64,000 nucleotides of DNA from an uncultured Gammaproteobacteria bacterium (lineage in GTDB: Bacteria; Patescibacteriota; Microgenomatia; Levybacterales; GWA1-39-11). The stretch covers positions 44,062 through 108,061 of the forward strand of contig CAYRUR010000003.1 of assembly GCA_964427615.1 (NCBI GenBank). Direction: 5' to 3'. Position numbers and translations under genes: made by a program. Positions 2,976 through 30,706 of the stretch are shown here, piece by piece (positions within the stretch are counted from its first letter, which is position 1; each line of letters starts with the position of its first letter). The notes under the pieces are model-generated. The model did no database searches and had not been told where the DNA came from. It saw only the letters and a program-made list of their open reading frames with translations.

Positions 2976-3106
2976 ACAAAGTTGCTTTATGTGTTTTTGA
3001 GATTGATACATCTGTAACTAAGGAAAGAGTTATACACCTCTTAATGCTAGTTTGACCTTCTATTTTCAATTTTCGTTTTTCGATTTACGATCTAAGATTT
3101 CACCGT

Positions 3107-5110
3107 ATGGTACAATATGAGCGTATGCAATTTGAATTAGCTTCTGATTTTAAGCCTACCGGAGATCAGCCTCAAGCGATAGAAAAGCTTGAGAAGGGTT
3201 TGCAGCAAAATGTAAGAGACCAAGTGTTGCTTGGTGTAACTGGTAGTGGAAAAACATTTACTATTGCCAATGTTATCCAAAAAATCCAAAAGCCAACGTT
3301 GGTTATTTCACACAACAAAACACTAGCTGCACAACTGTATCAAGAGTTGCGTGATTTTTTTCCAAATAATGCAGTCTCTTATTTTGTATCCTACTATGAC
3401 TATTACCAGCCAGAAGCCTATATTCCTACCACTGATACATACATTGCCAAAGAAACCCAAATTAATGAAGAGATTGATAAACTGCGCCTGGCTGCTACTA
3501 CAAATATTTTGACCAGAAATGACACCATTGTCGTTGCCTCAGTATCTGCAATCTACAATTTAGGATCTCCTGAAGAATATGGAAATCGTTTTATAGCCTT
3601 GCAGGCAGGTGAAGCAGTAAATAGAAAAGATCTTCTAGAACAATTCTTAGATCTCATGTACTCTCGAAATGATTATGACTTCAAAAGAGCAACATTTCGG
3701 GTAAAAGGTGAAGTGATAGAAATTTTTCCTGCGTATGAGGACACGGTAGTAAGACTCGTATTGGATGCTGATGTACTTTCCAAAATTCAAATTTTAGATC
3801 CCATGACAGGAGAAATACGTGAATCACGCGAGCGAGTGGTTATTTATCCGGCAAAACATTACATCACAGAACGTTCTGTGTATGACACTGTTTTTAAACA
3901 AATACGGCATGATTTACAACTAAGAGTGGAAGAGCTGCAAAAACAAGGAAAGATGCTTGAAGCAGATAGACTCATGAAAAGGACAGAGTATGATCTCAAG
4001 ATGATGAAGGAAATTGGGTATGTCAATGGTGTTGAAAATTATTCCCGGTATTTTGATGGGAGAAAACCAGGAGAAGCACCTCATTCTTTACTAGACTTTT
4101 TTGAAAAAGCTGCAGGTAAAGATTGGCTGTTGGTAGTGGATGAGTCTCATATGACAATTCCGCAAATCAGAGGGATGTATAACGGAGACAGAGCCAGAAA
4201 AGAGGTTTTGATTAATTATGGTTTTAGATTGCCTTCTGCGTATGACAATAGGCCTCTCACTTTTGATGAATTCAGAGAAAGGATACACAGAACTATGTAT
4301 GTAAGTGCTACTCCGGCTGATTGGGAACTACAGGCAAGCGGAGAAAAGAATGTCATAGAGCAACTCATTAGACCAACGGGAATTGTAGATCCAGAAATTG
4401 AGGTGAGGTCTACTGACGGACAAATTCCTAACTTAATAGAAGAAATTAGAAAAACAATAGCCAAACAACAACGAGTGTTGGTAACTACCCTTACCAAACG
4501 TATGGCAGAGGATTTATCTGCCTTTTTGGAAGAAAAAGAAATAAAAGTAAATTATCTGCATTCAGAGATAGATACACTTGCAAGACAGGATGTTTTGGAT
4601 GATTTGCGGGAGGGAAAATATGATGTGGTCGTGGGAATCAATTTGTTACGAGAAGGTCTTGACTTGCCTGAAGTAGGGCTGGTGGCAATACTTGATGCTG
4701 ATAAAGAAGGATTTTTAAGAAGTAGATCTTCTCTTATCCAGATCATGGGAAGAGGTGCCAGAAGAGTAGACTCACGAGTATTGCTGTATGCGGATACGGT
4801 TACTAGATCCATGAGAGAAGCTATTGATGAGGTTGAAAGAAGAAGAGAATATCAACTTGCATATAATGAAAAGCATGGCATTACACCAAAAACAATTGAG
4901 AAAAGAATTCGTGAGAAATTGATAGAAAGAAAAGAAGAAGTCTCAGATGATATCAAACCACTCCTGGACAAAGAAGTATTATTGCCAGATGATAGAGAGA
5001 AAGTAGTAAAACGTTTGCGCAAAGAAATGCAGGAAGCAGCAAAAGCACTCGATTTTGAGACGGCGGCACTCTTGAGAGATAAAATTAGGTATCTGCAACA
5101 AGGAAGGTGA
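3107..5110 (+). CDS. uvrB: excinuclease ABC subunit B (UvrB)
   Basis: Walker A GVTGSGKTFT, helicase motifs, beta-hairpin region, C-terminal UVR domain (ALDFETAALLRDKIRYLQ); 667 aa. Confidence 0.95.
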   Translation: MVQYERMQFELASDFKPTGDQPQAIEKLEKGLQQNVRDQVLLGVTGSGKTFTIANVIQKIQKPTLVISHNKTLAAQLYQELRDFFPNNAVSYFVSYYDYYQPEAYIPTTDTYIAKETQINEEIDKLRLAATTNILTRNDTIVVASVSAIYNLGSPEEYGNRFIALQAGEAVNRKDLLEQFLDLMYSRNDYDFKRATFRVKGEVIEIFPAYEDTVVRLVLDADVLSKIQILDPMTGEIRESRERVVIYPAKHYITERSVYDTVFKQIRHDLQLRVEELQKQGKMLEADRLMKRTEYDLKMMKEIGYVNGVENYSRYFDGRKPGEAPHSLLDFFEKAAGKDWLLVVDESHMTIPQIRGMYNGDRARKEVLINYGFRLPSAYDNRPLTFDEFRERIHRTMYVSATPADWELQASGEKNVIEQLIRPTGIVDPEIEVRSTDGQIPNLIEEIRKTIAKQQRVLVTTLTKRMAEDLSAFLEEKEIKVNYLHSEIDTLARQDVLDDLREGKYDVVVGINLLREGLDLPEVGLVAILDADKEGFLRSRSSLIQIMGRGARRVDSRVLLYADTVTRSMREAIDEVERRREYQLAYNEKHGITPKTIEKRIREKLIERKEEVSDDIKPLLDKEVLLPDDREKVVKRLRKEMQEAAKALDFETAALLRDKIRYLQQGR

Positions 5111-5118
5111 GAGATAAA

Positions 5119-5140
5119 CCCCCGCAAAAAGAAGCGGGGG
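5119..5140. terminator. GC hairpin CCCCCGC-aaaaagaa-GCGGGGG between convergent uvrB and the 5160-5555 gene; likely bidirectional terminator
   Basis: 7-bp G/C stem read directly; U-rich tract on the minus-strand side. Confidence 0.5.
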
Positions 5141-5159
5141 CGTAAGATTCATTTGTGTC

Positions 5160-5555
5160 TTACTCTGTTACTCTAAAGTCCATCCTCCCTTCTGGAAGTG
5201 TTTGTCCCCATACTCGTACACGATAACCAGATTCTTCCAGCTTTAAGATGTGTACCTCAATTTCTTGAGTGCCTATGATGGTTTCTATATGCACATAGAC
5301 GATGTTGCCGGATTCATCGTAGTACCTCATTCTTTTGCTGTGAGGATACCATTTTTCTTCTTCTTCCCGTACTGCATAGTCCGGAAGATGCTTCTCTTTC
5401 CTCGATGAAATTTTAAGACTATATGCTGGCAGATATGAGAGGTTCCTAAAAATGAACCATTCTTCTAACTCTTTTAGAGTAATATCTTCTGTAAGAAACA
5501 AATCTATCCAATTAGCAGGTGTAATGAAGATCTTGAACATTTCTTTCTCCTTCAT
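5160..5555 (-). CDS. hypothetical protein
   Basis: 131-aa ORF, no recognisable family. Confidence 0.4.
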   Translation of the reverse strand: MKEKEMFKIFITPANWIDLFLTEDITLKELEEWFIFRNLSYLPAYSLKISSRKEKHLPDYAVREEEEKWYPHSKRMRYYDESGNIVYVHIETIIGTQEIEVHILKLEESGYRVRVWGQTLPEGRMDFRVTE

Positions 5556-5677
5556 TTACAAGGTGCCACGTTGTCTGTCGCAGTTGACAGATAGTAAATG
5601 TATTATAACTCTGTAAAGTGAAGGTGACAAGAAACAGATAGGAATGGGGTATAATGCTTAGTTATTCAGTTAATAGG

Positions 5678-5765
5678 TTACGAGTTAATGAGTTAACGAG
5701 TTTATTGTTAGTATTAAGTATAGAACGAAAGTTAAAAGGCAAAATTAAAAAATCAAAAGTATCCA
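5678..5765. repeat. intergenic motif block: GTTACGA-GTTAATGA-GTTAACGA array followed by a 7-bp-period decayed tandem array (agtatta/agtatag/aacgaaa/gttaaaa/ggcaaaa/ttaaaaa/atcaaaa)
   Basis: Periodicity visible by splitting the sequence in 7-mers; same unit types recur at 30035-30125. Confidence 0.5.
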
Positions 5766-5911
5766 TTCGACAAGCTCAGGATGCTGAGTTTACCGAAGCA
5801 CAATTAAAAAGTTAAAAGTTTGAAAACAAGCGTTTAGCGGTTAGGGTTGCGGAGCGAGTACGAATTTCGTACCCGCTCCAAGTTATCGCGTTGAGCTCTC
5901 CGTTAGTCTTG

Positions 5912-6130
5912 CTATTCTTCTTTCCATATTTTGTATATTAAATAGAGGGAAAAAAGAAGGGAAATAAGTCCCAGGGTAAGAAATTTTAACTGGAGTTCTC
6001 CAATTGAGAAAACTCCAACTGGGAAGGAAACGATGAAGGCTGCCTCTCGGTAAATTCTTTTTTTCGTGATCAGCCAAATAAGATAGAGGCCCAAAGCTAG
6101 ATCAAACGAGAATTGGAGCACTTCCAACAT
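5912..6130 (-). CDS. hypothetical small membrane protein (weak)
   Basis: 72-aa hydrophobic ORF in an otherwise long non-coding spacer. Confidence 0.2.
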   Translation of the reverse strand: MLEVLQFSFDLALGLYLIWLITKKRIYREAAFIVSFPVGVFSIGELQLKFLTLGLISLLFSLYLIYKIWKEE

Positions 6131-6329
6131 GTTTTTCTCTCTTTCCTCGAGAAACTCACAGAGACCCCTTCCGCCATTGGAAAAAGCTGTGAGTTCTAGT
6201 CAACTCAATGTGCGATAGTCTGTATTATACAAAAAAATGTCTGAATTTCAATACTATGAGACGTATGTTGTTGAAGATAAATAAAAAATGAGAATGAGTG
6301 TGGAGATTACGTTCTAAGATGAGTTAGAG

Positions 6330-7004
6330 TTACTCTTGCAGACGATAATAGGTTTCGTATAACCTTGCTGTTTGTATCAGTCCTTCACGAGGGAAATCTG
6401 CTGGGGGTGGAATATGTATGTGAAAAGGTGATGATGGATGATCTACATTTTTGACAATTGTTTCCAATGTAAGTATGCCAGAAGGGTCTTCTGTTTGTAG
6501 CTCTCGTAATAGTTCTTGTAGAGTTTTAGGACCATTTTGTGGAATTTGATAAAAGTGAGGATGGACTCCATTTTTGTGATATGGATAAGCAGATAGATCT
6601 ATCATGGTGGAAAAATCTTTTATACTTCTGTTATCCTCTGGTAGCGTTGATGCCACAAGGAGTCCCATGAGTCTTCTTCCTCCGAGAGATGCCTGATTTA
6701 GGGCGGTATGGTTTAGTCTTCGTTTTGATGTAGGTATATCTTCAACCCCAATTTCTTGTATTGCTCGTAAGTCAGTGTAAGTAAGTGCAGCTGAGGCTTC
6801 TAATAAGGAAGATCCATTTTGCACACCATGACTTATAAAAGGAAGTACCCTATCTCTATTGTTGTGTATTTCTTCTATAATTTCAGAAAACTTTTTTTGG
6901 ATATACTCTTTTCCTTCCCGAACTTCTTCTTCAGAAAACTCATCTTTTTCAGGATAATGAGAATATGGTTCATCAGATTCAATAGACATATTACTATTTA
7001 ACAA
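6330..7004 (-). CDS. hypothetical protein
   Basis: 224-aa ORF, acidic N-terminus, no family recognised. Confidence 0.4.
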   Translation of the reverse strand: MLNSNMSIESDEPYSHYPEKDEFSEEEVREGKEYIQKKFSEIIEEIHNNRDRVLPFISHGVQNGSSLLEASAALTYTDLRAIQEIGVEDIPTSKRRLNHTALNQASLGGRRLMGLLVASTLPEDNRSIKDFSTMIDLSAYPYHKNGVHPHFYQIPQNGPKTLQELLRELQTEDPSGILTLETIVKNVDHPSSPFHIHIPPPADFPREGLIQTARLYETYYRLQE

Positions 7005-7096
7005 ATATCTTTTTTGAACAATGTGAGAAGTTGATAAGAATTATGATTGAATTTTTACCTCATTTTAGGCTATAATAGTACACTTTGGGGAAAAGC

Positions 7097-7305
7097 GATG
7101 AATGAGTTAATGAGTGGCGCGTTAAAGAGTTAACGAGTTGAATTTTAGTATGAAGTATTAAGTATGGCAAGAAGAGTGTAGCAGTTTGACTTAAAATACT
7201 TACTGCTTAATACTAATTTAGATTTAAGATTTTTGAAAAAAGAGCTTTACAAACTTTATAACTTTGTAAACTCTTTAACCCGTTAACTCGTAACTCGTTA
7301 ACTAA
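7097..7305. repeat. symmetric motif block upstream of uvrA: GAGTTAATGAG..GCGTTAAAGAGTTAACGAGTT + AGTATGAAGTATTAAGTATGG ... mirrored as ATACTTACTGCTTAATACT + AACTCTTTAACCCGTTAACTCGTAACTCGTTAACT; includes an 8-bp-stem hairpin TTTACAAA-n9-TTTGTAAA
   Basis: Reverse-complement motif pairs read directly; fills the ~310-bp spacer before the uvrA start. Confidence 0.5.
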
Positions 7306-7313
7306 TAAAAATT

Positions 7314-10199
7314 ATGGCTGACGAGATTATTGTAAAAGGCGCGAGGGAACATAACCTCAAGAATATAGACCTGGAAATCCCAAAACAAAAATTAGTTGTT
7401 TTTACGGGATTGTCAGGTAGTGGAAAAAGCTCTTTAGCATTTGATACTATTTATGCCGAAGGACAAAGAAGGTATGTAGAGTCTCTTTCCTCATACGCCC
7501 GTCAATTTTTGGGCATCATGAAAAAACCAAATGTTGAGTATATCGAAGGTCTTTCCCCCTCTATCTCCATAGACCAGAAAAGCACGTCTCACAACCCACG
7601 TTCTACCGTAGGCACCGTTACTGAAATTTATGACTATTTACGTCTGTTATTTGCTCGTGTTGGTCATCCTCACTGTCCTAATTGCGGAACAGAAATTGCC
7701 AAAACCACCAAGGAAAAAATTGTAAATGAAATCACGGAAAAATATATTGAGATGACTCCTACCCGGGCTATGGTCTTAGCACCTTTAGTAAAGGGACGAA
7801 AAGGAGAATATCAGGATTTATTTAAAGACCTGCGCAAAAGAGGTTTTCAAAGAGTACGAATTGATGGACAACTATTTAATTTAGATGAAGATTTGGTACT
7901 TATAAAGACTAACAAACATACTATTGATGTAGTAGTAGACAGACTAATACTGGATAAGAATTACGAAAGACAGCGTATTTTGGAAGCAGTAGAACAAGCG
8001 CTAAGTATTGGAAATGGGGAAGTTATTATCTCCAAAGTAGAGGATAAAGGATTTACGTTTCCTGAAAAACCGAGCCAGATGCAAGATGAGCTTTTCTCAG
8101 AACGTTTTGCTTGTCCTAACTGTGGTACTTCAGTTGCCGCTGTAGAGCCCCGCTTATTTTCATTTAATTCTCCTTTTGGTGCCTGTCCATCTTGTAATGG
8201 ATTAGGATTGATTCATACAATAGATGAAGATTTGGTCTTTGCGCCTGAAATTAATATTGCAGAAGGTGGTATTCTGCCATTTTCAGACATTATTTCCAAA
8301 GACACATGGTTTGCCAGAACCGTCAGACAAGCTTTTAAAGAAAATGATATCTCGCTGTACATTCCTCTCAAAGACCTGCCTGAGGAAAAGAAAAAAATTA
8401 TTCTGGATGGTACTGGCAGTAGAGTGTACGAAGTAGCAGGAACCAATCGCTTTGGAGAAAAAACAACTATTTATGAATCATATCCAGGAGTTTTGCAGTT
8501 TTTGCTACAGCGGTATGCGGAAAGTGAGTCAGAACTGATAAAAAGAGAAGTGGAAAAGTACATGATGCCTACCATTTGTCAAAAGTGCGGAGGAGCAAGA
8601 CTGAAAGAAGAAGCTCTGGCAGTAACGGTGGGAGATAAAAACATTGCGCAAGTATCTCAGATGAGCATTGATGCCGTACATCAATTTATGTCAGGACTAG
8701 AACATACGCTGACCCTGAAAGAAAAAGAAATTGCCACAGTCATTTTGCGAGAGATACTGGCTCGACTTACGTTTTTGGTGGATGTAGGACTTTCCTATCT
8801 TTCTTTAGGACGTGAAGCCCAGACCTTATCGGGTGGAGAGGCACAACGTATTCGCCTTGCTTCTCAAATTGGAAGTGGTTTGTCCGGTGTATTGTATGTT
8901 TTGGATGAGCCATCTATTGGATTGCACCCCAGAGATAACACAAAACTAATCCAGACTCTTAAAACTTTGCGAGATATTGGCAACAGCGTATTAGTAGTAG
9001 AACACGATAAAGAGACGATGGAGGAGTCAGATTATATTTTTGATTTTGGGCCAGGTGCAGGTGAGTATGGAGGACAAATTATTGCCAAAGGTACCCCTGA
9101 AGAAATAAAAGAAGATGAGCATTCTATCACAGGACCGTATTTATCAGGGAAAAAAGATATCAATCTTAAGAAAAAAGAATTTTCTACTAAAAATACCTCT
9201 CATTTTTTAACGCTAAAGGGAGTATCAGAACACAACTTAAAGAATGTAGACATATCTATTCCGTTGGGAGCATTTGTATGTGTGACTGGTGTTTCTGGAA
9301 GCGGAAAATCAACACTTATTAATGACGTACTGTATCATGCCATTGCAGGAAAGAAAAACCCATTTCATAGACAAAAGCCAGGTGCGTTTCAAGGTTTGGA
9401 AGGGGATGAGCATATCAAACGTGTTTTTATGATAGACCAGTCTCCTATTGGCAGAACGCCACGCAGCAATCCTGCTACTTACACCGGAGTATTTAACTAT
9501 ATTAGAGAGATGTTTACGAATACACATGAAGCAAGACTCAGAGGATACAAACCAGGGCGTTTTTCTTTCAATGTAAAAGGTGGACGCTGTGAAACATGTG
9601 AAGGAGAAGGACAGCTAAAAATTGAGATGCAATTTTTACCGGATGTGTATATAGAGTGTGAATCATGTCATGGGACTCGTTATACACAGGATACGTTAGA
9701 GATTGAGTTTGAAGGTAAAAATATTGCAGAAGTGTTAAATATGAGTGTTGAGGAAGCATTGCCTTTCTTTTCATTTCATGAAGGGCTTTACAACAAGATT
9801 TTGACACTCAAAGAAGTAGGTCTATCTTACGTAAGGCTCGGACAACCAGCACCCACACTATCTGGTGGTGAAGCACAACGTATCAAATTAGCAACAGAAT
9901 TATCCAAAAAAGGAGCAGGAGGAAGTTTGTATCTGTTGGATGAGCCTACCACAGGACTGCATTTTGCAGATCTGGAAAAATTGATCAAAGTACTAAGACA
10001 GCTTGTTGATAAAGGAAATACAGTATTGGTAATAGAACACAACCTTGACGTAATCAAGAACGCTGATTATATAATAGACTTAGGTCCTGAAGGTGGAGAC
10101 AAAGGAGGAAATCTGGTAGCAGCAGGAACACCTCGCCAAGTAGCACAAGTTGCTGGGTCGTATACTGGTATGTACCTGAAAAAAGAACTCAATGTATGA
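7314..10199 (+). CDS. uvrA: excinuclease ABC subunit A (UvrA)
   Basis: Two ABC ATPase modules (GLSGSGKSSLAFDT; GVSGSGKSTLIND), signature LSGGEAQR twice, Cys-rich zinc-finger insertions; 961 aa. Confidence 0.95.
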   Translation: MADEIIVKGAREHNLKNIDLEIPKQKLVVFTGLSGSGKSSLAFDTIYAEGQRRYVESLSSYARQFLGIMKKPNVEYIEGLSPSISIDQKSTSHNPRSTVGTVTEIYDYLRLLFARVGHPHCPNCGTEIAKTTKEKIVNEITEKYIEMTPTRAMVLAPLVKGRKGEYQDLFKDLRKRGFQRVRIDGQLFNLDEDLVLIKTNKHTIDVVVDRLILDKNYERQRILEAVEQALSIGNGEVIISKVEDKGFTFPEKPSQMQDELFSERFACPNCGTSVAAVEPRLFSFNSPFGACPSCNGLGLIHTIDEDLVFAPEINIAEGGILPFSDIISKDTWFARTVRQAFKENDISLYIPLKDLPEEKKKIILDGTGSRVYEVAGTNRFGEKTTIYESYPGVLQFLLQRYAESESELIKREVEKYMMPTICQKCGGARLKEEALAVTVGDKNIAQVSQMSIDAVHQFMSGLEHTLTLKEKEIATVILREILARLTFLVDVGLSYLSLGREAQTLSGGEAQRIRLASQIGSGLSGVLYVLDEPSIGLHPRDNTKLIQTLKTLRDIGNSVLVVEHDKETMEESDYIFDFGPGAGEYGGQIIAKGTPEEIKEDEHSITGPYLSGKKDINLKKKEFSTKNTSHFLTLKGVSEHNLKNVDISIPLGAFVCVTGVSGSGKSTLINDVLYHAIAGKKNPFHRQKPGAFQGLEGDEHIKRVFMIDQSPIGRTPRSNPATYTGVFNYIREMFTNTHEARLRGYKPGRFSFNVKGGRCETCEGEGQLKIEMQFLPDVYIECESCHGTRYTQDTLEIEFEGKNIAEVLNMSVEEALPFFSFHEGLYNKILTLKEVGLSYVRLGQPAPTLSGGEAQRIKLATELSKKGAGGSLYLLDEPTTGLHFADLEKLIKVLRQLVDKGNTVLVIEHNLDVIKNADYIIDLGPEGGDKGGNLVAAGTPRQVAQVAGSYTGMYLKKELNV

Positions 10200-12058
10200 A
10201 GAGGATAGTTATTAGTTTTTTTATAGCCGTTTTTTGTTTTGGTATATCCTCGACTTCAACTACTCATGCTACAACTGAATTTGATACCTCTGTTACCAGT
10301 AGCTATCTTGCTCGTCAAGATGGATCCACTATTGTTACTCAAACTATAGAATTAAAAAATAACACAGAATATTACTACACACCTTCCTACACGCTTTCTA
10401 CTGGACTTCAGGATGTTAAAAATATCGCTGTCTATAACGCTGCCGGAGCTATTCCATTTGAAGAAATTGATAACAAAGAAGCAGGCAAATCTATAAAAAT
10501 ACAGTTTCAGGATAGAGTGGTTGGACTTGGCAAAGTAAATTATTTTACCATCACGTTTTCTACCAACAGCATTGCCAAAAAAATGGGAGATGTGTGGGAA
10601 GTAAGTATTCCTGGACTTGATAACCCTGATAGTTTTGCTGCATATCAAATAACGGTCCAAGTCCCTCAAGATTTTGGTAATGTTACTATCATAAAACCAC
10701 AAAAAACAGTTGCTGAAGGGAGCAGGACATTTTCCTTTACTAAAGATGAGATTACAAAGTCTGGTGTGATGCTTATATTTGGAAAAAACCAATATTATCG
10801 TCTCAATCTTGCCTATCACCTATCCAACAAAAATTTATTTCCTATCAAAACAGAGATAGCCCTTCCAGCCTCAACCAATTACCAAGAAGTGTTAATAGAG
10901 TCTATCAAAGAGAAGCCTATGAATACGTATAGAGACGACGATGGTAACTGGCTAGCCCTTTATTCTCTCAATCCTCAGGAAGAAAAGACCATTCATGTTA
11001 CAGCATTTGTCAAAATAGCACCTACGCCTGAGCAACAAGGACTATCTGATGAGCAAAAAAAATTGTATACACAAGAACTCTCCTATTGGGATACGAATGC
11101 AAAAATAAAAGAAGCTGCTAAAAAAATGCATTCAGCAAAAGATGTATATGAGTATGTTACGAAAAGCCTTACGTATAATTACGAACGTTTTTCTGAAAAA
11201 AGTGTGCGTTTAGGTGCAAAAAAAACCATAGAAAGTCCTGAAAATAGTGTGTGCCTGGAATTTACGGATCTTTTTATTAGTGTAGCAAGAGCAGCTGGAA
11301 TTCCTGCCAGAGCTGTGGAAGGATATGCATATACGCAAAATACAAAATTAAGACCTTTATCATTAGTAAAAGATGTGTTGCATGCATGGCCGGAATATTA
11401 TGATGAAGAGAAAAAAACATGGGTCATGGTAGATCCGACATGGGGTAATACAACAGGGGGGATAGATTATTTCTCAACCCTGGACTTTGCCCATATTGCT
11501 TTTATTACTAAAGGCAAAGATAGCACGTATCCAGTGCCAGCAGGAGGATACAAAGTGAGTGATACCTCTCAAGACGTGGTAGTAAACGTTATTACAGCAG
11601 AAGAGTTTGAAAAAAAATCAAAAAGCAGCTTTAGCGTGGATTTTGACTCTCAAGCAATAGCAGGATTTTCTATCAAAGGAATGTTAACGATTAAAAACAC
11701 TGGCTCAACTCCTTTGAAAGATAAATATATTCAAATAGACTCCACGCTCACTCCATCTCACCAAGAATACTATATTACAGACATTCCACCATTTGGTGAA
11801 AAGACGATTTTAGTCTCCTTTGATAAAACACCCTTTTTGACAAACAAAACATATAAGATTACAATTCACTTTGACGGAAAGAGTATTGAAAAATCTATTG
11901 CTGTTTCAATACTTCCTAATCCGTTATGGATTTTAATAGGAGGTGGTATCTTTGCAAGCTGTTTTATCATATCAATCATTGCCTACCGTTCCTGGCGTAT
12001 ATTTATTCAAAGACCAAAACCAAAAAATACTGTACGTCGGAAAAGCAAAAGATCTTAA
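10196..12058 (+). CDS. secreted/membrane-anchored transglutaminase-like cysteine protease domain protein (signal peptide, C-terminal TM helix)
   Basis: Core NSVCLEFTDLF...HAWPEYY...VMVDPTW matches the Cys-His-Asp transglutaminase-like triad; start overlaps uvrA stop (ATGA). Confidence 0.6.
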   Translation: MKRIVISFFIAVFCFGISSTSTTHATTEFDTSVTSSYLARQDGSTIVTQTIELKNNTEYYYTPSYTLSTGLQDVKNIAVYNAAGAIPFEEIDNKEAGKSIKIQFQDRVVGLGKVNYFTITFSTNSIAKKMGDVWEVSIPGLDNPDSFAAYQITVQVPQDFGNVTIIKPQKTVAEGSRTFSFTKDEITKSGVMLIFGKNQYYRLNLAYHLSNKNLFPIKTEIALPASTNYQEVLIESIKEKPMNTYRDDDGNWLALYSLNPQEEKTIHVTAFVKIAPTPEQQGLSDEQKKLYTQELSYWDTNAKIKEAAKKMHSAKDVYEYVTKSLTYNYERFSEKSVRLGAKKTIESPENSVCLEFTDLFISVARAAGIPARAVEGYAYTQNTKLRPLSLVKDVLHAWPEYYDEEKKTWVMVDPTWGNTTGGIDYFSTLDFAHIAFITKGKDSTYPVPAGGYKVSDTSQDVVVNVITAEEFEKKSKSSFSVDFDSQAIAGFSIKGMLTIKNTGSTPLKDKYIQIDSTLTPSHQEYYITDIPPFGEKTILVSFDKTPFLTNKTYKITIHFDGKSIEKSIAVSILPNPLWILIGGGIFASCFIISIIAYRSWRIFIQRPKPKNTVRRKSKRS

Positions 12059-13253
12059 AAAAAGAGTTTCCTCATACTTTAATAAGGGGAGGGCTCTTGA
12101 TGCCAAAACGATCAACTTGGTTGAAAAGATAGCCTCTATTTCCTATGTACCCGTAGCTTCGGAAATTGAAGCCTTTTTACTGGAAGCAGAGTACATCAAA
12201 GAATATCGGCCGTTTTATAACATAAAAATGGCTGATGACAAATCATTTCCCTATTTGGCCATAAGTAAAGGAGAGAATCCCCATATCACTATCACCCGCA
12301 AACGCAATCTAGAACAAGCGGATTATTTTGGTCCTTATCCTAATGTTACTGATTTAAAACTTGTCTTAAAACTCTTGAGAAAAATCTTTCCTTTTCAAAC
12401 AGTAAAGAATCATCCTAAAAAAGAATGCCTATATTATCACCTCAAACAATGTCCTTGTATTGCTGTGCATCCAGAACTGACAGATGAGTATACAAAAAAC
12501 CTGCGAAATATAAAGCTGTTTTTAAAAGGAAAAAAAGAAGCCATTATCAAAGACCTGGAAAAAGAGAGAGATACCTATGTAAAACAAGAAGCTTTTGAAA
12601 AAGCGCAGGAAATACAGAGAAAAATTGAGAAAATACTGTTGGTTAGCAGTGAACATTACAGCCCTTTTCGGTATCAAGAACGGCCTGATTTGTACTACGA
12701 AAGATTGCAAAAAGAGGTTGAATCATTAAAGTCCATTTTACAATCCCATCACCTGGACATAAAAAAACTGGAGAGAATAGAGTGTTATGATATTTCAAAT
12801 ATCCAAGGAAAAGAAGCAACGGGGTCTATGGTGGTACTTATAAATGGCGAAACAGCAAATAAAGAGTATCGCCGATTTAAAATCAAGTCAAAAAATACTC
12901 CAGATGATTTTCATATGATGAAAGAAGTAATAACACGCAGGATCAAAAACACGCAATGGCCGTATCCTGATTTATTTGTCATAGATGGAGGAAAAGGACA
13001 AGTAGGGAGTGTATTGCCAATCTTGAGACGCAACGGTATTCTCATTCCAGTTATTGGTCTTGCTAAAAGAGAGGAAATTATTGTTATTCCTCAAGAAATG
13101 CAGGAACATGAATTTGTGTATGAGGAAGTAAAATTACCAAAAGACACACCTGGTATCAATCTCCTGCGTAAAATAAGAGATGAGGCTCATCGTTTTGCTT
13201 TGACGTATCACCGGAATTTACGTAAAAAAAGACTATTGTCTTTGCTTGGGTAA
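11943..13253 (+). CDS. uvrC: excinuclease ABC subunit C, short form (GIY-YIG + UVR-like + RNase H-like endonuclease domain; lacks the C-terminal (HhH)2 domain); GTG start overlapping the upstream gene by ~115 bp, true start may be further in
   Basis: N-terminal GVYLFKD...ILYVGKAKDLKKRVSSYF (GIY-YIG); C-terminal YDISNIQG...PDLFVIDGGKGQ (UvrC endonuclease domain); only 436 aa. Confidence 0.75.
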   Translation: MVSLQAVLSYQSLPTVPGVYLFKDQNQKILYVGKAKDLKKRVSSYFNKGRALDAKTINLVEKIASISYVPVASEIEAFLLEAEYIKEYRPFYNIKMADDKSFPYLAISKGENPHITITRKRNLEQADYFGPYPNVTDLKLVLKLLRKIFPFQTVKNHPKKECLYYHLKQCPCIAVHPELTDEYTKNLRNIKLFLKGKKEAIIKDLEKERDTYVKQEAFEKAQEIQRKIEKILLVSSEHYSPFRYQERPDLYYERLQKEVESLKSILQSHHLDIKKLERIECYDISNIQGKEATGSMVVLINGETANKEYRRFKIKSKNTPDDFHMMKEVITRRIKNTQWPYPDLFVIDGGKGQVGSVLPILRRNGILIPVIGLAKREEIIVIPQEMQEHEFVYEEVKLPKDTPGINLLRKIRDEAHRFALTYHRNLRKKRLLSLLG

Positions 13254-13315: not shown

Positions 13316-13351
13316 TTGATTCTGGTCGTACTCCGTTTGCCAGAATGACAA
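13316..13351. mobile_element. half-copy of the GTCATTCTGG/CCAGAATGAC MITE-like family (right arm only: TTGATTCTGGTCGTACTCCGTTTGCCAGAATGACAA)
   Basis: Near-identical to right half of copy at 1068-1152. Confidence 0.45.
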
Positions 13352-13449
13352 TATGTAAAAGACTTTTGAATTTGATTTTGAACTATACAAAGCTTCGTTA
13401 GGTATTATATATTGTATTTTGTAAGCAAAGGAGTATACAATTTATCTAT

Positions 13450-18991: not shown

Positions 18992-19075
18992 CTGAATCTC
19001 AAATCTTGAATCATACATTCTGAATCTTGCCTTCATACTTAATACTTACTTCTTAATACTTTATTCTCTTTCTAA
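18992..19075. repeat. 7-bp-period decayed tandem array (cctgaat/ctcaaat/cttgaat/catacat/tctgaat/.../taatact/tacttct/taatact), 12 units
   Basis: T at every 7th position across 11 of 12 units; contains ATACTTAATACT motif shared with 5.7, 7.1 and 30.0 kb spacers. Confidence 0.5.
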
Positions 19076-24484: not shown

Positions 24485-24547
24485 AAAAGAAGAGCGTTTA
24501 GCGTATAGTGTATAGCGCTTAGATTTTAGGAAAAACTATTAAACAGA

Positions 24548-24638
24548 CGTCATTGCGATCCTGAGCTTGTCGAAGGAGAAGCAATCCCCTTACGAAAAAA
24601 GATCGCCACAGGAACTAGCGTTCCTTCGCGATGACAAT
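24548..24638. mobile_element. MITE-like element, variant family (termini CGTCATTGCGATC ... TTCGCGATGACAA) preceded by GCGTTTAGCGTATAG heptamer motifs
   Basis: Imperfect terminal inverted repeat with same GTCAT...ATGAC ends as the 1068/26092 family. Confidence 0.4.
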
Positions 24639-24768
24639 ACAGTTTTCCCTTTAGAATTTCGAATTTAGTGCTTAGAATTTAATCCTCATTTTCTTACTTG
24701 ACTTTATTTATGAGCAGCAAGTAATATATCCCTCGCGCTTGTTGTAAGAAAGCCGTAAGAATAGCTCT

Positions 24769-26076
24769 ATGATATCTGCCCTGCCCAAAAAAACCTTCAA
24801 AAAAATTGCGAGTTTACACCAGAAAATGCAATCATTACCCAATGAAATACGGCATTTGATATATGCCAATGCTATGCTTTCATTTGGCATGGGAGTAAGC
24901 TCTCTCTTCTTAAATATTTATCTCTGGAAACAGAGCAGCGGTCTACAAGACATCGTAACCTTTAATCTCATTCAGTATCCTGCGATTCTTTTTGCATTTA
25001 TTGTTGTAGGGATTATCAAAACTTCAGTAAAACTAAAACAAATGATGGGATTTGGATTTTTACTGTATATTGCCGGTTATGCATTGCTGATGATGTTAGG
25101 GAAACATGCAGTTGAGTACCTTCTTCCTCTTGGTTATTTATTTGGTATTGCAACTGGTTTTTATTGGGCTGGCAATAATACACTCACTTTTCTTTCAACA
25201 AAGGAAAAAAATAGAGATACTTTTTATGCACTCAATGCCTCAATTGGTTCATTTATATCAGTACTTACACCTCTTGTCAGTATGCTTGTTTTTTCTCAAT
25301 TTTTATTGCATACCCAAAGTGAATACACCCGTTATTTTTTACTTTTCTCTGTAGCCATTCTTATTTTTAGCTTTGGACTGTACTACTCGCTCAAACTGCC
25401 AAGTACACATGTGCCTAAAATTCGAGCGCGAGATACTATTAACCCCTTAAAGGATAGAATGTGGCAGATCGTTTCACTTTCACTTTTTTTTGAGGGATTT
25501 AAGGGAGGATCAGCAGGATTTATTGCATCCATCCTTACTTTCCAAGTTTTGACAACAGAGTTTGATATGGGATTATACAACAGCATTTTTGCCTTGTTAA
25601 GTGCAGCTGTTGCTTACAAGATGGCAGGGCGTTTGAATAAAAAAAATAGGATGAAGTTTGGATTTGTAGGTGCTACGTTATTTTTATTCTCTAATATTTT
25701 TTTTATAGGCATGTTTTCCTCAACTGGAATTTTAATTAGCTCTGCTATTGCTCTTTTTGCCAACCCTCTCTTTAGTGTAGGACTGGCTTCATCATTTTTC
25801 AGAGCTATAGACCACAATCCCAATCATAAAGAAGAATATTATAAATACATAACGTTTAGAGAGTTGATTCTTACTGTAGGTAGATTCTGTGGTGCATCTT
25901 TCTTTCTACTATTCTTAAATATCGGCAGCCAACTCACTATGGCAAAAGTATGGTATTTATTCTTAGGAGTTATTCCTCTGATTTATTTTCTGCTGACCCG
26001 CCATTTTGAGAAAATGATAGAAAAAGAATTAGCGTTTCAAAGTACCTCATTGCTTGAAGAAGAAGCTCAGAACTAG
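24769..26076 (+). CDS. major facilitator superfamily-like transporter (12 predicted TM helices)
   Basis: 435 aa, polytopic membrane protein with two 6-TM halves; weak MFS loop motifs. Confidence 0.5.
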   Translation: MISALPKKTFKKIASLHQKMQSLPNEIRHLIYANAMLSFGMGVSSLFLNIYLWKQSSGLQDIVTFNLIQYPAILFAFIVVGIIKTSVKLKQMMGFGFLLYIAGYALLMMLGKHAVEYLLPLGYLFGIATGFYWAGNNTLTFLSTKEKNRDTFYALNASIGSFISVLTPLVSMLVFSQFLLHTQSEYTRYFLLFSVAILIFSFGLYYSLKLPSTHVPKIRARDTINPLKDRMWQIVSLSLFFEGFKGGSAGFIASILTFQVLTTEFDMGLYNSIFALLSAAVAYKMAGRLNKKNRMKFGFVGATLFLFSNIFFIGMFSSTGILISSAIALFANPLFSVGLASSFFRAIDHNPNHKEEYYKYITFRELILTVGRFCGASFFLLFLNIGSQLTMAKVWYLFLGVIPLIYFLLTRHFEKMIEKELAFQSTSLLEEEAQN

Positions 26077-26091
26077 AAGTTATTTCAAAAC

Positions 26092-26199
26092 TGTCATTCT
26101 GGTAAGCCAATAGGCGCATCCAGAATCTCGATTGGTTCATAAATTGATTCTGGGCAAGTCCTTCGACCATGAGCTCAGGACCGAATGGCCAGAATGACT
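26092..26199. mobile_element. MITE-like palindromic element, copy 3 (CTGTCATTCTGG ... CCAGAATGACTA), 108 bp
   Basis: Same termini and internal CCAGAATCT / AATTGATTCTGG blocks as copy at 1068-1152; extra CCAGAATCAG fragment at 26238-26248. Confidence 0.55.
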
Positions 26200-26262
26200 A
26201 AATAAGGAGGTTTTGAAATGAGTTCTAGGTAACTTGTCCAGAATCAGAAAAGAGTTTATAAT

Positions 26263-27128: not shown

Positions 27129-28370
27129 TTACAAATGAGAGTATTCTTTTCGTATTTCCTCACGTTGATACTTGTCTGCTAGAAACCCATTTGGTTTTGT
27201 GGGTAATTTAGGTGCGTATGCCAAATATCCATTGCGCACTATATGTCCCCCATACTTTTTATTGAGACTATCTACCGCTTTTAAGAGTTTGTCTTGACGG
27301 GGATCTTCAAAAAGAGAGTAAGTAGTAACTTTTTTGTCTTCAATACTGCTCACCCAAATACTTATTTGCCGTACCATCCATTGCCAATTCCATTTTTGAT
27401 ATAAAAAGTAACATACTTCAAAAATATCTTGTCCTTTATCCATATACCTATCAGTCGTTTTTCTGCCTTGCATACTTTTTTCTCCCGCCAGAGAAAGTCC
27501 TACTGTTTTGGCTTTTTTATCTAGTTTGCGCAACTTTAATGCTACTTCTTCGCATAATTCATACATGATTTGTAAAATTCTTTCCTGGCTATATTCATTT
27601 TGAGGAAGACAATAGTTCCTGCCCACAGACTTAACTGTTTCCTGATGAGTGAAATGACGTACTAGACTCACATCTTTTCCATACGCAATATCTTTGAGAT
27701 GTAAAGCGCATACATTGCCAAATTCTTTTTTTAAATGAAAAAGAGGGTAGTCTCGTAAAGTAAGTAAATTTGTGATTCCCAGACAATACAGTCTCTTTTT
27801 CAATCGTTCTCCAATACCACACACTGTAGTCAGTTTGATTTGTGCATAAATAGTATCTAAATTTTTCTCATTAATTTCAGCAAAGCCATCTGGTTTATCA
27901 AGACCTGAGGCTAATTTTGCCAATAGTTTGTTGTGAGAAAGACCCACAGATACCGTAACCACAGGTCCAATTTCATTTCTAATGTCTGCTTTAATGCGTT
28001 CTACTACGCTAAAAATAGAAGGGTATAGATGCATGACAGGAGTCAAATCCATAAAAAGCTCATCCAAAGAAAAGAGTTCTACTATAGGACTATAACGACT
28101 GCAAATATCCAAAAACTTTTTGGTGATATCAAGATACCGGTCAAAATCAGCGGGGATAAAGATGATTTCAGGACAGATATTAACCGCTTCCCACGTACGC
28201 ATGCCTGTTTTTATGCCTTTTTTCTTTGCTTCGCGAGAAGCAGCAATAATACAAGTTCTGCCATTTGTTGCCGTAACACCAATAGGGTGATTACGTAAAT
28301 TAGGATTAAAATGTTGTTCACAGCTAGCAAAATAAGAATCAAAATCAATACAAAGAATAGTGCGTTTCAT
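27129..28370 (-). CDS. dinB: DNA polymerase IV (Y-family translesion polymerase)
   Basis: ILCIDFDSYFASCE... and SLDE motifs, little-finger domain; 413 aa. Confidence 0.85.
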   Translation of the reverse strand: MKRTILCIDFDSYFASCEQHFNPNLRNHPIGVTATNGRTCIIAASREAKKKGIKTGMRTWEAVNICPEIIFIPADFDRYLDITKKFLDICSRYSPIVELFSLDELFMDLTPVMHLYPSIFSVVERIKADIRNEIGPVVTVSVGLSHNKLLAKLASGLDKPDGFAEINEKNLDTIYAQIKLTTVCGIGERLKKRLYCLGITNLLTLRDYPLFHLKKEFGNVCALHLKDIAYGKDVSLVRHFTHQETVKSVGRNYCLPQNEYSQERILQIMYELCEEVALKLRKLDKKAKTVGLSLAGEKSMQGRKTTDRYMDKGQDIFEVCYFLYQKWNWQWMVRQISIWVSSIEDKKVTTYSLFEDPRQDKLLKAVDSLNKKYGGHIVRNGYLAYAPKLPTKPNGFLADKYQREEIRKEYSHL

Positions 28371-28545
28371 GCTGTTTTACGTTCACTTCAAGAGTACTTT
28401 ACCGTTAGAGTAAAATCCAAAACAAGTACATTTTTATCACTTTTTTAAGGGCAGTAGGAATCATAGGTGTAATAACTATATGAGAAAAATACTAGAAAAT
28501 CAATTGAATAAAAATAGAAATAACTATGACAAAATAGAGCAATTT

Positions 28546-29964
28546 TTAAGAGGAGGGAAGATCAGAAAAACGCACCTGTACTCCTTCTGTTTTTTTGTTT
28601 TTTAAAAGAGTAGAAGAAAGTATTTTATACGCATCATAGTCGAAAGAGTAATCATATGTTTTTACTTCCTGCGTATATTCAGAAATAATAGTGCGCTGGA
28701 TAATACACCATTTATCTATTAAAAATATCTCTTTATTTCCTTCATCATCTTTCTCTTCAAAAAAAATAGGGCCCGCAAACGGCCATTTTTTTATTTTGTA
28801 GTCATAGAATGCTTGCAAAAAACGGATGTTATAAAACAAGGCCTTTTCTTTTCCTACACATGCTCCTTTACACCATCCTAATTGATGCGCAAAGCAAGAT
28901 CCATTAGTGCTTTGCAAACCTAATATTTTTTGACACAATCCTCTTTCTTTAACTAAATTATTTAGTAAGTCTTTGGCTTGCTTTTTAGAACGAAAAACTC
29001 CCAAAACATTTTCAATTTCATCAACTGTTATACTCTTTTTGTGTTCTAAAACCACTGTGTCATACCCATTTTTGTCTGTTGTTTTTTTAAGATAGGTAAG
29101 GAGTCTTTTTTCACGCAATTTTCTATTGTGTAATGGCTGCATTTTTTTGATCAATTGGCTTTCTAATAATTGTGCTCCTAAGTCTCCACATGTTTTGATA
29201 GTCTCGATATGTTTTACTTCCTGAGTAAGCTGCATTTCTTTGGAAGAAGTGTAATCGCTTGAGAAATGGGAAAGCACTCTTTCTCTGATATTCTTGCTTT
29301 TTCCAATATAAAGCGGAGTAGATACATCTCCGTAAAAAATATATACACCAGGACTTTCAGGTAAGTCATTGAGTTTTTTTTCTGAAAGGTGGAGTGGAAT
29401 AGTAGGTTTTTTCAACACGTAGGAAATAGCCTCCGATATTCTCCTGTCCGGAAATTCAGTTTGCAGTTTTTTGTAAAACTCCCATACAACCTTAGCATCA
29501 TCAAATGCCCTGTGTCGTGCTTGACAAGAAATATCAAAACGTTCCATAAGGCTATCTAAGTTATGTCGAGTATGCTGAGGATATAAAAAACGGGAAAGCT
29601 TTACCGTACACAGATGTTTGCTGGTAAAAGAAATACTATGTCTTCTGAATTCATTGCGTAAAAATCCGTAATCAAAGCGCACGTTATGTGCCACAAAAAT
29701 ACATCCTGCAAGCATTTGTAAAATTTCTTCTTTTTTGTCTTCAAAAAAAGGAGCTCTTTCTAAATCTTGTTTTGAAATACCAGTAAGACTTTCAATAAAA
29801 GGAGAAACATGCATACCAGGGTTCAGAAGCGTTGAAAACTGGTCTATAACTTTATTTTCCTCAACTCGCAGGATGCCTATTTCAATAATTTTGTCATACA
29901 CAGGGCTATTTCCTGTGGTCTCTATATCAACAAAAGCAAGAGAAGAAGGAAGATCTTTTACCAT
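28546..29964 (-). CDS. fusion protein: N-terminal DEDDh 3'-5' exonuclease (DnaQ-like) + C-terminal GIY-YIG nuclease domain
   Basis: FVDIETTGNSP...HNVRFDYGFL...RHRAFDDA (Exo I-III); GVYIFYGD...LYIGKSKNIRERVLSHF (GIY-YIG). Confidence 0.75.
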   Translation of the reverse strand: MVKDLPSSLAFVDIETTGNSPVYDKIIEIGILRVEENKVIDQFSTLLNPGMHVSPFIESLTGISKQDLERAPFFEDKKEEILQMLAGCIFVAHNVRFDYGFLRNEFRRHSISFTSKHLCTVKLSRFLYPQHTRHNLDSLMERFDISCQARHRAFDDAKVVWEFYKKLQTEFPDRRISEAISYVLKKPTIPLHLSEKKLNDLPESPGVYIFYGDVSTPLYIGKSKNIRERVLSHFSSDYTSSKEMQLTQEVKHIETIKTCGDLGAQLLESQLIKKMQPLHNRKLREKRLLTYLKKTTDKNGYDTVVLEHKKSITVDEIENVLGVFRSKKQAKDLLNNLVKERGLCQKILGLQSTNGSCFAHQLGWCKGACVGKEKALFYNIRFLQAFYDYKIKKWPFAGPIFFEEKDDEGNKEIFLIDKWCIIQRTIISEYTQEVKTYDYSFDYDAYKILSSTLLKNKKTEGVQVRFSDLPSS

Positions 29965-30034
29965 AAGAAAAGTACCACCATACTAGCAAAAGAGGCATCT
30001 CATTAGCAAGCAATTAAATCTAAAACTAGTATAA

Positions 30035-30125
30035 AGTATGAAGAAGTAAGTAGTAAGTATAGAAAGAAATTAAAAAATAAAAAGTCAAAAAGCAAAAGTA
30101 GATGGCAAAAGTAAAAAGTTTTAAG
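30035..30125. repeat. 7-bp-period decayed tandem array, 13 units (agtatga/agaagta/agtagta/agtatag/aaagaaa/ttaaaaa/.../gcaaaag/taaaaag)
   Basis: Same unit vocabulary as 5710-5765 array. Confidence 0.5.
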
Positions 30126-30318
30126 ATTCTGTATATACTACATACTATATACTAAATACCCACTTTTAACTCTTTAACGCGCAATCCATTAACTTACTTG
30201 TACTTAAGCCCTAACCACTCAACGATACCGGCCCTGTACCAGACGGTACGGGACGGGCTTCGTAACCGTTTACCAAAAATCAATCCTCCTCATGGATCCT
30301 GAATTAAATTCAGGATGA

Positions 30319-30560
30319 CAAGCTTTGGTAGTTTTATATTTTTTCTAAACGCTAAACGCTTCTCTTTCTGGATCCTAAATCCCTCCTTTGTCAAGGCTTC
30401 GGAAGGGCACAGCAAGTTCCTCCGATTTGATTGCAGTTCAGGCCTAGGCTCTGAAGAGCCTTCAAGTAAAAGATACTGTAAGTGCTCGTAGAGATGACAC
30501 ATTTGTGGTGGTTTTAGTAATTTTTTCTAAACGCTAAACCCTATACGCTAAACGCTTGCT
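30319..30560. repeat. pair of ~45-bp direct repeats (GGT..TTTT..ATTTTTTCTAAACGCTAAAC(G/C)CT...) ~190 bp apart, each containing (CTAAACG)x2; between them hairpins ATCCTGAATT/AATTCAGGAT and AGGCTCT-ga-AGAGCCT
   Basis: Read directly; the annotated minus-strand 70-aa ORF 30290-30502 lies wholly in this repeat region and is probably spurious. Confidence 0.4.
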
Positions 30561-30595
30561 CTCTGTTTACTGTTTTCTGTTCTCTGCCTTCTTCT

Positions 30596-30623
30596 TAATT
30601 CCTAATTCATAATTCTTAATTCG
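30596..30623. repeat. tandem heptamer array (TAATTCN)x4: ttaattcc taattca taattct taattcg
   Basis: Read directly. Confidence 0.55.
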
Positions 30624-30669
30624 TACCTTCCAACTCGTTAACCCGTTAATAACCAATAAAGAATAATTT

Positions 30670-30706
30670 CTAAACCCTAAACCCTAAGCCCTAAACGCTA
30701 AACGCT
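30670..30706. repeat. tandem heptamer array (CTAAACS)x5: ctaaacc ctaaacc ctaagcc ctaaacg ctaaacg (telomere-like CCCTAAA-type motif)
   Basis: Read directly; same heptamer also at 30345-30360, 30527-30556 and reverse-complemented at 5823-5850 and 24493-24520. Confidence 0.6.

Follow-up and report, generated by a model that had tools for sequence, protein, structure and literature searches.

Is the repeat block that separates the promoter of uvrA from its start codon in an uncultured bacterium of the Candidate Phyla Radiation (CPR, Patescibacteria) a regulator-binding architecture shared by DNA repair genes, or does it belong to a family of small selfish insertions? Both possibilities were put forward in a first-pass annotation of a DNA stretch of 64 kb (contig CAYRUR010000003.1, positions 44,062 to 108,061; hereafter the window), which described a symmetric motif block in front of uvrA and pointed to the same motifs elsewhere in the stretch. 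The UvrA and the Cho-like protein encoded in the window have their best named homologues in Candidatus Levybacteria/Patescibacteria, the closest UvrA being 81% identical. Our analysis points to the second possibility: the block is probably (we put the probability at roughly 0.7) a lineage-specific, non-coding insertion of mosaic repeats in the uvrA leader, similar to the short tandemly repeated repetitive (STRR) sequences of cyanobacteria and to the hairpin-forming doublets of REP (repetitive extragenic palindromic) elements known as REPINs, and not an array of operators for repair genes.

Structure of the repeat block upstream of uvrA

The block comprises about 205 bases (positions 7101-7306) between the promoter and the start codon of uvrA, and is built of nested inverted arms whose units are degenerate GAGTTAAY octamers and AGTATKA heptamers. 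According to the inverted-repeat finder the outer arms (7102-7139 and 7269-7306, 38 nt) have a complementarity of 79% and the inner arms (7145-7165 and 7196-7216, 21 nt) of 86%, and Tandem Repeats Finder (TRF) resolved the arms into period-8 (GTTAAAGA / AACTCGTT) and period-7 (AGTATGA) tandem arrays, those within the left half spanning 7121-7139 and 7147-7166. All strings on which the description of a symmetric block had been based were found where the first-pass annotation had placed them, and the inverted arms are real. The two halves, named A-left and A-right below, are 74% identical, and A-right is split in the alignment by an extra segment of about 47 nt (~7220-7266). A small hairpin (7246-7270) lies mostly within this extra segment, with its 3' arm entering the right outer arm.

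The predicted RNA fold of the block has an energy of -59.4 kcal/mol, as compared with -43.2 +/- 3.9 for shuffled sequences (z=-4.15), and the DNA fold gave z=-4.25; these folding predictions show that the block is able to form a long imperfect hairpin. The block contains no open reading frame (ORF) longer than 36 aa, and an upstream ORF (uORF) of 11 codons is its only coding capacity. A search against Rfam 15 gave no match at E<=1 across 5500-7400 and, at the gathering threshold, only 4 tRNAs in the whole window. The block is not an assembly artefact, since an independent Logan contig equals the window at 100% identity over 13,583 nt with the block included. Contigs from two sequencing runs were identical and gave no evidence of presence/absence polymorphism.

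Insertion downstream of a conserved promoter

The uvrA promoter, TTGAAT-N18-GGCTATAAT (7047-7076), sits upstream of the block. In the three closest relatives that were retrieved for the uvrA comparison (L004, L005 and L006) the TTG...GGCTATAATA of this promoter is invariant (alignment A2), whereas the distance from the -10 to the uvrA ATG is 56, 60 and 19 nt, respectively, versus 237 nt in the window. As the promoter is conserved and the gap in the relatives so much shorter, the block is a lineage-specific insertion. The -10 in 29 further uvrA loci is usually found 10-25 nt before the ATG, and therefore, taken together with the relatives, the short leader is ancestral and the long one derived.

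The 27 nt to the left and the 10 nt to the right of the block together make up a uvrA leader of normal length, and GGGGAAAAG aligns to the region of L005 that resembles a Shine-Dalgarno (SD) sequence. The uORF runs from an ATG at 7098 to a TAA at 7133 (MNELMSGALKS) and extends into the left outer arm; any function of it is speculative. At the other end, the base of the predicted hairpin ends 8 nt before the uvrA ATG, and there is no SD directly 5' of this ATG. The flanks of the block (...GCGATGA/AT... and ...AAT/AAAAATT, with the boundary at the slash) have 1-3 nt of A/T that could have been duplicated, which is indistinguishable from chance.

Promoter-like matches around the block do not exceed shuffles (9 versus 6.0 +/- 2.2). 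A possible internal promoter in the extra segment (TTGAAA-N18-TATAAC, 7233-7262) was not called, its -10 lacking the T at position 6, and a match to TTGCCA-N17-TAAAAT was found on the minus strand within the block. We also considered avoidance of, or a decoy function for, a restriction site: GTTAAC (HpaI), which is contained in the octamers, occurs 14 times versus 16.9 expected, so that there is no signal.

A dispersed module of about 60 nucleotides

The motifs of the block recur in the window far more often than in shuffled sequence. We found 11 matches to GAGTTAACGAGTT with at most two mismatches (1.79 +/- 1.44 expected; 0/100 shuffles reach 11), 7 matches to AGTATTAAGTAT with at most one mismatch (0.91 +/- 0.90 expected; 0/100 shuffles reach 7) and 4 matches to the composite ATACTNNATACT-N5-16-AACTCKTTAACNC versus 0 expected. 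Outside the block the recurrences lie at 5665-5723, 19031-19067 and 30028-30197, and all recurrence sites named in the first-pass annotation were recovered. One of these, at 5678-5720, had been placed beside the spacer downstream of uvrB; the copy is real but does not lie directly downstream of uvrB. An accessory segment of 2.2 kb separates uvrB from uvrA, and the copy occupies the middle of this segment, past an ORF on the minus strand (5160-5555).

Comparison of the window with itself by BLAST matched 5668-5721 with 7105-7158 (E=3e-7, 81%), 7105-7165 with the reverse complement of 30135-30194 (E=1.3e-5), and 19035-19067 with the reverse complement of 30028-30060 (91%). The unit underlying these matches is a module of about 60 nt, in which some four degenerate GAGTTAAY octamers are followed by a linker of 7 nt and then by two or three AGTATKA heptamers. 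Four copies of it (A-left, A-right, B and C; Table 1) are present in the window in one register and with 65-77% identity, A-left and A-right being no closer to each other than unlinked copies are. A-left and C, at loci 23 kb apart, even have an exact, non-repetitive 17-mer (GCGCGTTAAAGAGTTAA) in common. The E-values down to 3e-7 indicate common descent of the composite unit and not independent slippage, and since the register and unique segments are common to the copies, the module has probably spread by copying.

Copy B is placed between two accessory ORFs on the minus strand and is continued by AAAAGNN and GCGTTTAG tracts and by a hairpin rich in GC, as far as ~5880. Copy C lies upstream of the operon for a Cho-like nuclease and a Y-family polymerase (cho-dinB; gene start at 29964, minus strand). 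Its heptamer end (30138-30154) pairs in inverted orientation with the tract at 30028-30060 (17 nt, 88% complementary), an AAAAGNN tract of ~95 nt separating the two. The partial octamer tract at 30625-30649 is surrounded by CTAAACG, TTCTTAA and TCTCTGT heptamer tracts (TRF). A fifth, partial copy of the module was found next to a TP_methylase gene, about 0.9 kb beyond the left end of the window (L087, 6648-6689).

Run against 1.19 Mb of uvrA and cho loci from other members of the CPR, the module profile (nhmmer) gave no match; elsewhere it matched only the same copies on other contigs of this genome and the partial fifth copy. The composite module pattern gave no real copy in the GTDB species representatives (its two matches were chance matches in coding DNA, so that this genome is not one of these representatives), 0 matches in JGI metagenomes and 0 in the viral contigs of IMG/VR, and blastn with the module gave 0 matches in plasmids and phages. 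Among everything that was searched, the module is confined to this genome.

Table 1. Position of the uvrA leader, the module copies and the related tracts in the window
Feature	Position	Strand	Basis and remarks
ORF bounding the spacer of the block on the left	6330-7004	-	
uvrA promoter, TTGAAT-N18-TATAAT, GGC before the -10	7047-7076	+	promoter scan, 10/12 positions matched
Remnant of the original leader: SD-like GGGG (7087-7090), then 11-codon uORF	7087-7133	+	
Module copy A-left	7101-7167	+	four degenerate GAGTTAAY octamers, 7-nt linker, then AGTATGAAGTATTAAGTAT; nhmmer E=1.5e-16
Unique 30-nt core GGCAAGAAGAGTGTAGCAGTTTGACTTAAA, loop of the inner hairpin	7166-7195		
Module copy A-right, inverted partner of A-left	7196-7306	-	nhmmer E=8.8e-13
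Small hairpin TTTACAAACTT / AACTTTGTAAA	arms 7246-7256 / 7260-7270		inverted repeat I9, with arms of 11 nt that are 91% complementary and a loop of 3 nt
uvrA, gene with the block in its leader	7314-10199	+	ORF and Pfam UvrA domains
Module copy B, single, without inverted partner	5665-5723	+	nhmmer E=1.9e-13
AGTATTA heptamer tract, ~60 nt upstream of tRNA-Arg(tcg), non-repair context	19031-19067	-	TRF
AGTATNA tract	30028-30060	+	TRF
Module copy C, upstream of the cho-like/dinB operon promoter	30134-30197	-	nhmmer E=7.9e-13
Partial octamer tract AACTCGTTAACCCGTTAA	30625-30649	-	nhmmer E=0.14, partial match

Tandem tracts in other spacers and in other CPR loci

The window is rich in arrays of period 7 or 8: we counted 24, or 3.75 per 10 kb, versus a median of 0.62 in 87 loci. 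Most of them (17/24) are intergenic, although intergenic DNA makes up 20% of the window (p=1.5e-7), and they fill 7 spacers, being concentrated in a few long ones. The 830-bp spacer at 29965-30793, for instance, is a near-continuous chain of AGTATNA, AAAAGNN, ATACTNN, CTAAACG/CTAAACC, TCTCTGT, TTCTTAA and AACTCGTTAAC tracts, interspersed with small GC-rich hairpins. Tracts also flank a hairpin upstream of a major facilitator superfamily (MFS) transporter gene (24493-24681), and a TTCGATT tract is found just before the uvrB ATG (3058-3091; TRF).

Similar structures were found in other CPR loci. L004 has tracts of its own (AAAAGTN, GAATTTT, TTGAATA and CTAGCGT), which are inserted at precisely those points where L005 has only 4 bp or no sequence at all. 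In L016, from another CPR species, a palindromic block of heptamers (AATCTCA / TTTAAGA; z=-5.45) lies between the uvrA promoter and the ATG, and in L008 (5920-6040) a palindromic block consists of heptamers that differ from those of the window. The AGTATNA heptamer of the window block returns as a palindrome with a loop of about 30 nt in L014 (14205-14293), and a palindromic block of GAATTAA / AAGTAGT is located just after uvrA in L038 (3090-3190). The uvrA leaders of L022, L007, L011, L018 and L027 are lengthened by unrelated small hairpin elements. Palindromic mosaic tracts are common in this Levybacteria-like lineage of the CPR, with sequences that for the most part vary from one species to the next.

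Several other repeats were observed. A second, unrelated family of small hairpins, with the ends GTCATTCTGG...CCAGAATGAC, has copies or fragments in the window at 1049-1190, 13316-13362 and 26074-26205, and an element of this type is present between the uvrA -10 and the ATG in the distant CPR locus L022 (~8230-8300). Small GC-rich hairpins (GTCATTGCGATCC...GCGATGAC; GGATCCTGAATTAAATTCAGGATGAC) occur among the heptamer tracts at 24540-24640 and 30293-30320 and in L087 at 6800-6826. The segments 30314-30360 and 30493-30542 are 82% identical units of a hairpin tail and a CTAAACG tract. In L006 a perfect tandem array of a 29-bp unit (GTGTAGAGAAGCTACACTAGTTTGACTGA; 2362-2601) is found on either side of an N gap by a truncated PPDK gene; it has GAGTGTAG and AGTTTGACT in common with the loop of the uvrA block (window 7175-7192), a combination seen nowhere else in the 1.19 Mb of loci. 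Contigs of the same genome in Logan end within the repeat-rich spacers (5774-5783 and 30262) and in the tRNA-Lys gene (19356); the repeats probably fragment short-read assemblies of CPR genomes.

Relation to promoters and LexA

We observed no consistent position of the module relative to the promoters: at uvrA it is found downstream of the promoter, at cho-dinB upstream of the -35. The cho-dinB promoter is conserved in L091 (from the same organism as L004), where the spacer is 116 nt versus 830 nt in the window. Relatives that retain LexA (72.6-74.3% nucleotide identity of the lexA gene) as well as the promoters have none of the motifs of the block in their lexA, uvrB, uvrA and cho spacers, and tracts related to those of the block adjoin genes for tRNA-Arg, the MFS transporter and the TP_methylase. 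The idea of a common regulator-binding architecture in front of repair genes is therefore not borne out, the promoter position being inconsistent, the relatives lacking the motifs and some of the neighbours having no role in repair. The other proposal of the first-pass annotation, a family of small selfish insertions, agrees with the insertion relative to three relatives, with the dispersed in-register module and with its restriction to one genome.

A very different picture is obtained for the lexA-uvrB spacer, in which the segment AAAAATATACGAAA...CTTGAA-N3-TTCAAGATGACAAA is invariant in all four genomes and bears no relation to the motifs of the block. This segment (AAAAATATACGAAA...CTTGAACATTTCAAGATGACAAA, window ~1985-2035, with the palindrome at 2006-2020) is a candidate LexA operator or promoter of the lineage and, judged from the alignment, is how conserved regulatory DNA looks here. 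Neither the palindrome CTTGAA-N3-TTCAAG nor the segment AATATACGAAA, when searched in the window, recurs at uvrA or cho. An array of LexA operators (SOS boxes) was rejected as an identity for the block, because its motifs are not conserved in relatives that share LexA and because its position relative to the promoters varies. Annotation of the motif block as an operator of repair genes should be avoided.

Comparison with known repeat families

The cyanobacterial STRRs are tandem intergenic repeats of about 7 bp that often form hairpins, and for which a role in transcript stability or translational coupling has been proposed (PMC2670836). The block likewise consists of tandem repeats in intergenic DNA, lies upstream of a gene as STRRs do between or upstream of genes, has relatives at several loci and is capable of forming a hairpin. 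Compared with the heptanucleotides of the STRRs, the inner arms consist of heptamers (AGTATKA) and the outer arms have a period of 8 (GAGTTAAY; TRF). Furthermore, the host belongs to the CPR/Patescibacteria and not to the cyanobacteria, the tracts have degenerate units rich in AT, one type being an octamer, and they are joined into a fixed composite module of ~60 nt that is itself dispersed. To our knowledge, the motifs of the block have no sequence relation to the STRR1-3 heptamers.

REPINs are inverted REP doublets around a spacer, which form hairpins in single-stranded DNA or mRNA, also occur as singlets and are extragenic (PMC3116915). The inverted pair of A-left and A-right around a spacer, the predicted hairpin, the singlet modules and the extragenic position are all reminiscent of these elements. 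However, the module is 60 nt of tandem oligomers and not itself palindromic, as compared with a GC-rich imperfect palindrome of ~20-35 nt; the halves of the block resemble each other no more than unlinked copies do, and neither a REP-associated tyrosine transposase (RAYT), the enzyme by which REPINs are mobilised, nor any other transposase was seen in the window.

The bacterial interspersed mosaic elements (BIMEs) of Escherichia coli and the pneumococcal BOX elements consist of short motifs in variable order and orientation, are prone to form hairpins and are co-transcribed. The block is similarly modular, with several motif types mixed in spacers (for an overview of BIME and BOX elements see PMC3184786). 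It differs from them in having no sequence similarity and in that its modules are microsatellite-like, with tract sequences that mostly differ between species of the lineage.

Direct repeats of the heptamer TAACTGA in Beggiatoaceae, Cyanobacteria and Bacteroidetes are intergenic and located near start codons, show no pattern in the function of the downstream genes, and often lack ribosome-binding sites in their vicinity (PMC4679880). The tracts in the window are also intergenic heptamer tracts by start codons, often without a ribosome-binding site and without a pattern in gene function, but essentially a single heptamer in direct orientation is found there and many types of heptamers and octamers, mostly inverted and nested, here. 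With MITEs (miniature inverted-repeat transposable elements) the block shares its size (~200 bp), its non-coding and AT-rich nature, its inverted ends, its position next to a promoter and its absence from the orthologous site of relatives. Unlike MITEs, it has no second full-length copy and no parent insertion sequence (IS) with matching ends; a target-site duplication is not clear, and the repeats that form its inverted ends lie inside a module that is also found singly.

The block lacks at least one defining feature of each of the STRR, REPIN and BIME/BOX families, and nothing in the searched collections resembles it in sequence. Small intergenic repeats that form hairpins are a known class, of which the block is a new member specific to its species. 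Such hairpin repeats have received little attention in this phylum so far, and a full-text literature search yielded no paper joining Patescibacteria, simple sequence repeats and intergenic DNA.

Origin of the block and alternative explanations

In our reading the block consists of two inverted module copies around the 30-nt core, the right one with a nested extra piece of ~47 nt, and is one of many intergenic mosaics across the genome in which degenerate tandem tracts of 7-8 nt are often arranged as palindromes. The conserved promoter would then give rise to a uvrA leader transcript of about 237 nt that is predicted to fold into a long imperfect hairpin and, by analogy with the known families, the effect on uvrA is probably neutral or mildly modulating, via mRNA stability or translation initiation. 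New copies of the module would arise through transposition in trans or else through recombination or template switching, and replication slippage would alter the number of units.

A number of observations weigh against this reading. The portion of the genome covered is the 64-kb window plus about 1.1 kb beyond its left end. No second full-length palindromic copy is present in the window or in the 1.19 Mb of loci, no clear target-site duplication was found at the ends of the block, a Pfam scan of 35 ORFs of the window revealed no transposase domain, and no IS was found in the window, so that mobility is something we infer from dispersal alone. Also, that the block is part of an mRNA is what we infer from its position behind the promoter, and the copies, being only 65-77% identical, give no sign of recent activity. 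Finally, tracts were found in 4/6 of the lexA-uvrB-uvrA and cho spacers of the window versus 2/18 of the other host spacers (one-sided p=0.018, a post hoc test in which four of the six spacers lie within one contiguous 5-kb segment), which together with the uvrA-leader block of L016 leaves room for a role tied to these genes.

This clustering is an argument for a species-specific cis-regulatory module, acting through arrays of regulator sites or as an RNA leader hairpin and co-ordinating the cho-dinB operon with uvrA and the uvrB region. Every full module copy of the window is located either between uvrB and uvrA or upstream of this operon, and the TTCGATT tract immediately 5' of the uvrB ATG fits in as well. 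Across other loci the enrichment upstream of uvrA is not significant, however: period-7/8 arrays occur in 9/63 uvrA-upstream spacers versus 26/339 other spacers (odds ratio (OR) 2.0, p=0.09, with the window included), in the CPR-like subset without the window the numbers are 4/24 and 13/107 (OR 1.4, p=0.51), and the clustering is not repeated in the organism of L004/L091, where neither the uvrA nor the cho spacer has a tract detectable by TRF. As the module also changes sides relative to the promoters, with copy B between minus-strand ORFs, as relatives with LexA, the uvrA and cho promoters and the invariant lexA-uvrB segment are entirely devoid of the motifs, and as tracts flank genes other than those for repair, we consider such a module unlikely. 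A variant, for which we see a slim chance, is that the tracts belong to an undescribed, fast-evolving group of mosaic repeats of Levybacteria-like CPR bacteria, whose species-specific 60-nt modules land preferentially by damage-response genes, where their RNA or DNA hairpins would tune the expression of SOS and nucleotide excision repair genes independently of LexA; the preferred landing sites may be the uvrA leader, the uvrB leader and the region upstream of cho-dinB. If this were true, the AGTATNA and GAATTAA palindromes in L014 and L038 would point to a shared recognising or generating protein.

The block might also have arisen purely locally, as a microsatellite that expanded by slippage and by template switching at quasi-palindromes, with the likeness between loci being due to a shared AT-rich mutational bias. 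The tracts are indeed degenerate tandem 7-8-mers with varying unit numbers, AGTATNA, GAATTAA and AAAAGTN are also found in distantly related CPR loci, and heptamers are, in the account of Mrazek et al. (2007) given in PMC4679880, the commonest class of long simple repeats in prokaryotes and attributed to polymerase slippage. Four copies in one register over ~60 nt, with a non-repetitive linker and the same unit-specific deviations, and an exact 17-mer common to A-left and C make this origin highly improbable; slippage probably acts on top of copying. Least credible of all, in our view, is a dedicated structured RNA controlling uvrA, such as a riboswitch, thermosensor, small RNA or attenuator. 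The fold, significantly more stable than shuffles, the hairpin base near the uvrA start codon and the uORF with its SD-like element, which overlaps the 5' arm, would suit such an RNA, but the stability is a trivial consequence of the inverted duplication, the arms consist of nothing but simple tandem repeats, copies B and C lie outside any leader, Rfam offers no match and the block is conserved in no relative examined.

The insertion of mosaic repeats in the uvrA leader is of interest in view of the nature of CPR genomes, which are usually described as small and streamlined. In the window, spacers of up to 830 bp are full of species-specific mosaic tandem-repeat hairpins, one of which interrupts the leader of a repair gene that is essential. 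Should the same be true of the whole genome, the repeats would provide a cheap marker for strain typing and a natural system for the spread of hairpin repeats without an obvious transposase, and would give rise to assembly breaks in metagenome-assembled CPR genomes.

Gene neighbourhood and further observations

The first genes of the window are lexA (minus strand) and uvrB; after the 2.2-kb accessory segment come uvrA, a gene with a transglutaminase core and a uvrC-like gene. The junction between uvrB and uvrA is a hotspot of variation: there are two or three unannotatable minus-strand ORFs in the window (5110-7040), 99 bp in L004 (9901-10001), one unrelated ORF in L005 (9314-10001) and three ORFs in L006 (7391-10001). 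The flanking accessory ORFs had no match to a Pfam or NCBIfam family, and the uvrA-adjacent ORF of L005 is not homologous to that of the window. The set of nucleotide excision repair genes is an unusual one, which the relatives nevertheless have as well: the uvrC-like gene (12117-13253) lacks a GIY-YIG domain, and the transglutaminase-core gene (10196-12058) is always found between uvrA and the uvrC-like gene. As a further part of this set, the cho-dinB operon (27.1-30.0 kb, minus strand; 27129-29964) encodes the separate Cho-like nuclease, with RNase_T, GIY-YIG, UvrC_M and Cho_C domains, and the Y-family polymerase.

Further downstream, a direct repeat of 672 nt with 88% identity (32899-33570 and 38842-39513), each copy with a DUF218 gene, brackets a copper-resistance-like island (33763-38735) that encodes a CsoR-type repressor, a DUF305 protein, a cupredoxin, a P-type ATPase with an HMA domain, a DsbD-like protein and a small HMA-like ORF. 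An ORF on the minus strand for which no family could be assigned (41451-42083) contains a tandem internal duplication (41535-41767 / 41769-42028, 73% over ~250 nt). The right end of the window is occupied by a prophage (~43420-64000 and beyond, in L089) that adjoins tRNA-Arg(tct) (43102-43177), has almost no heptamer tracts and carries genes for RecT, YopX, an SU10-type adaptor, terminase and a giant LPD38 protein.

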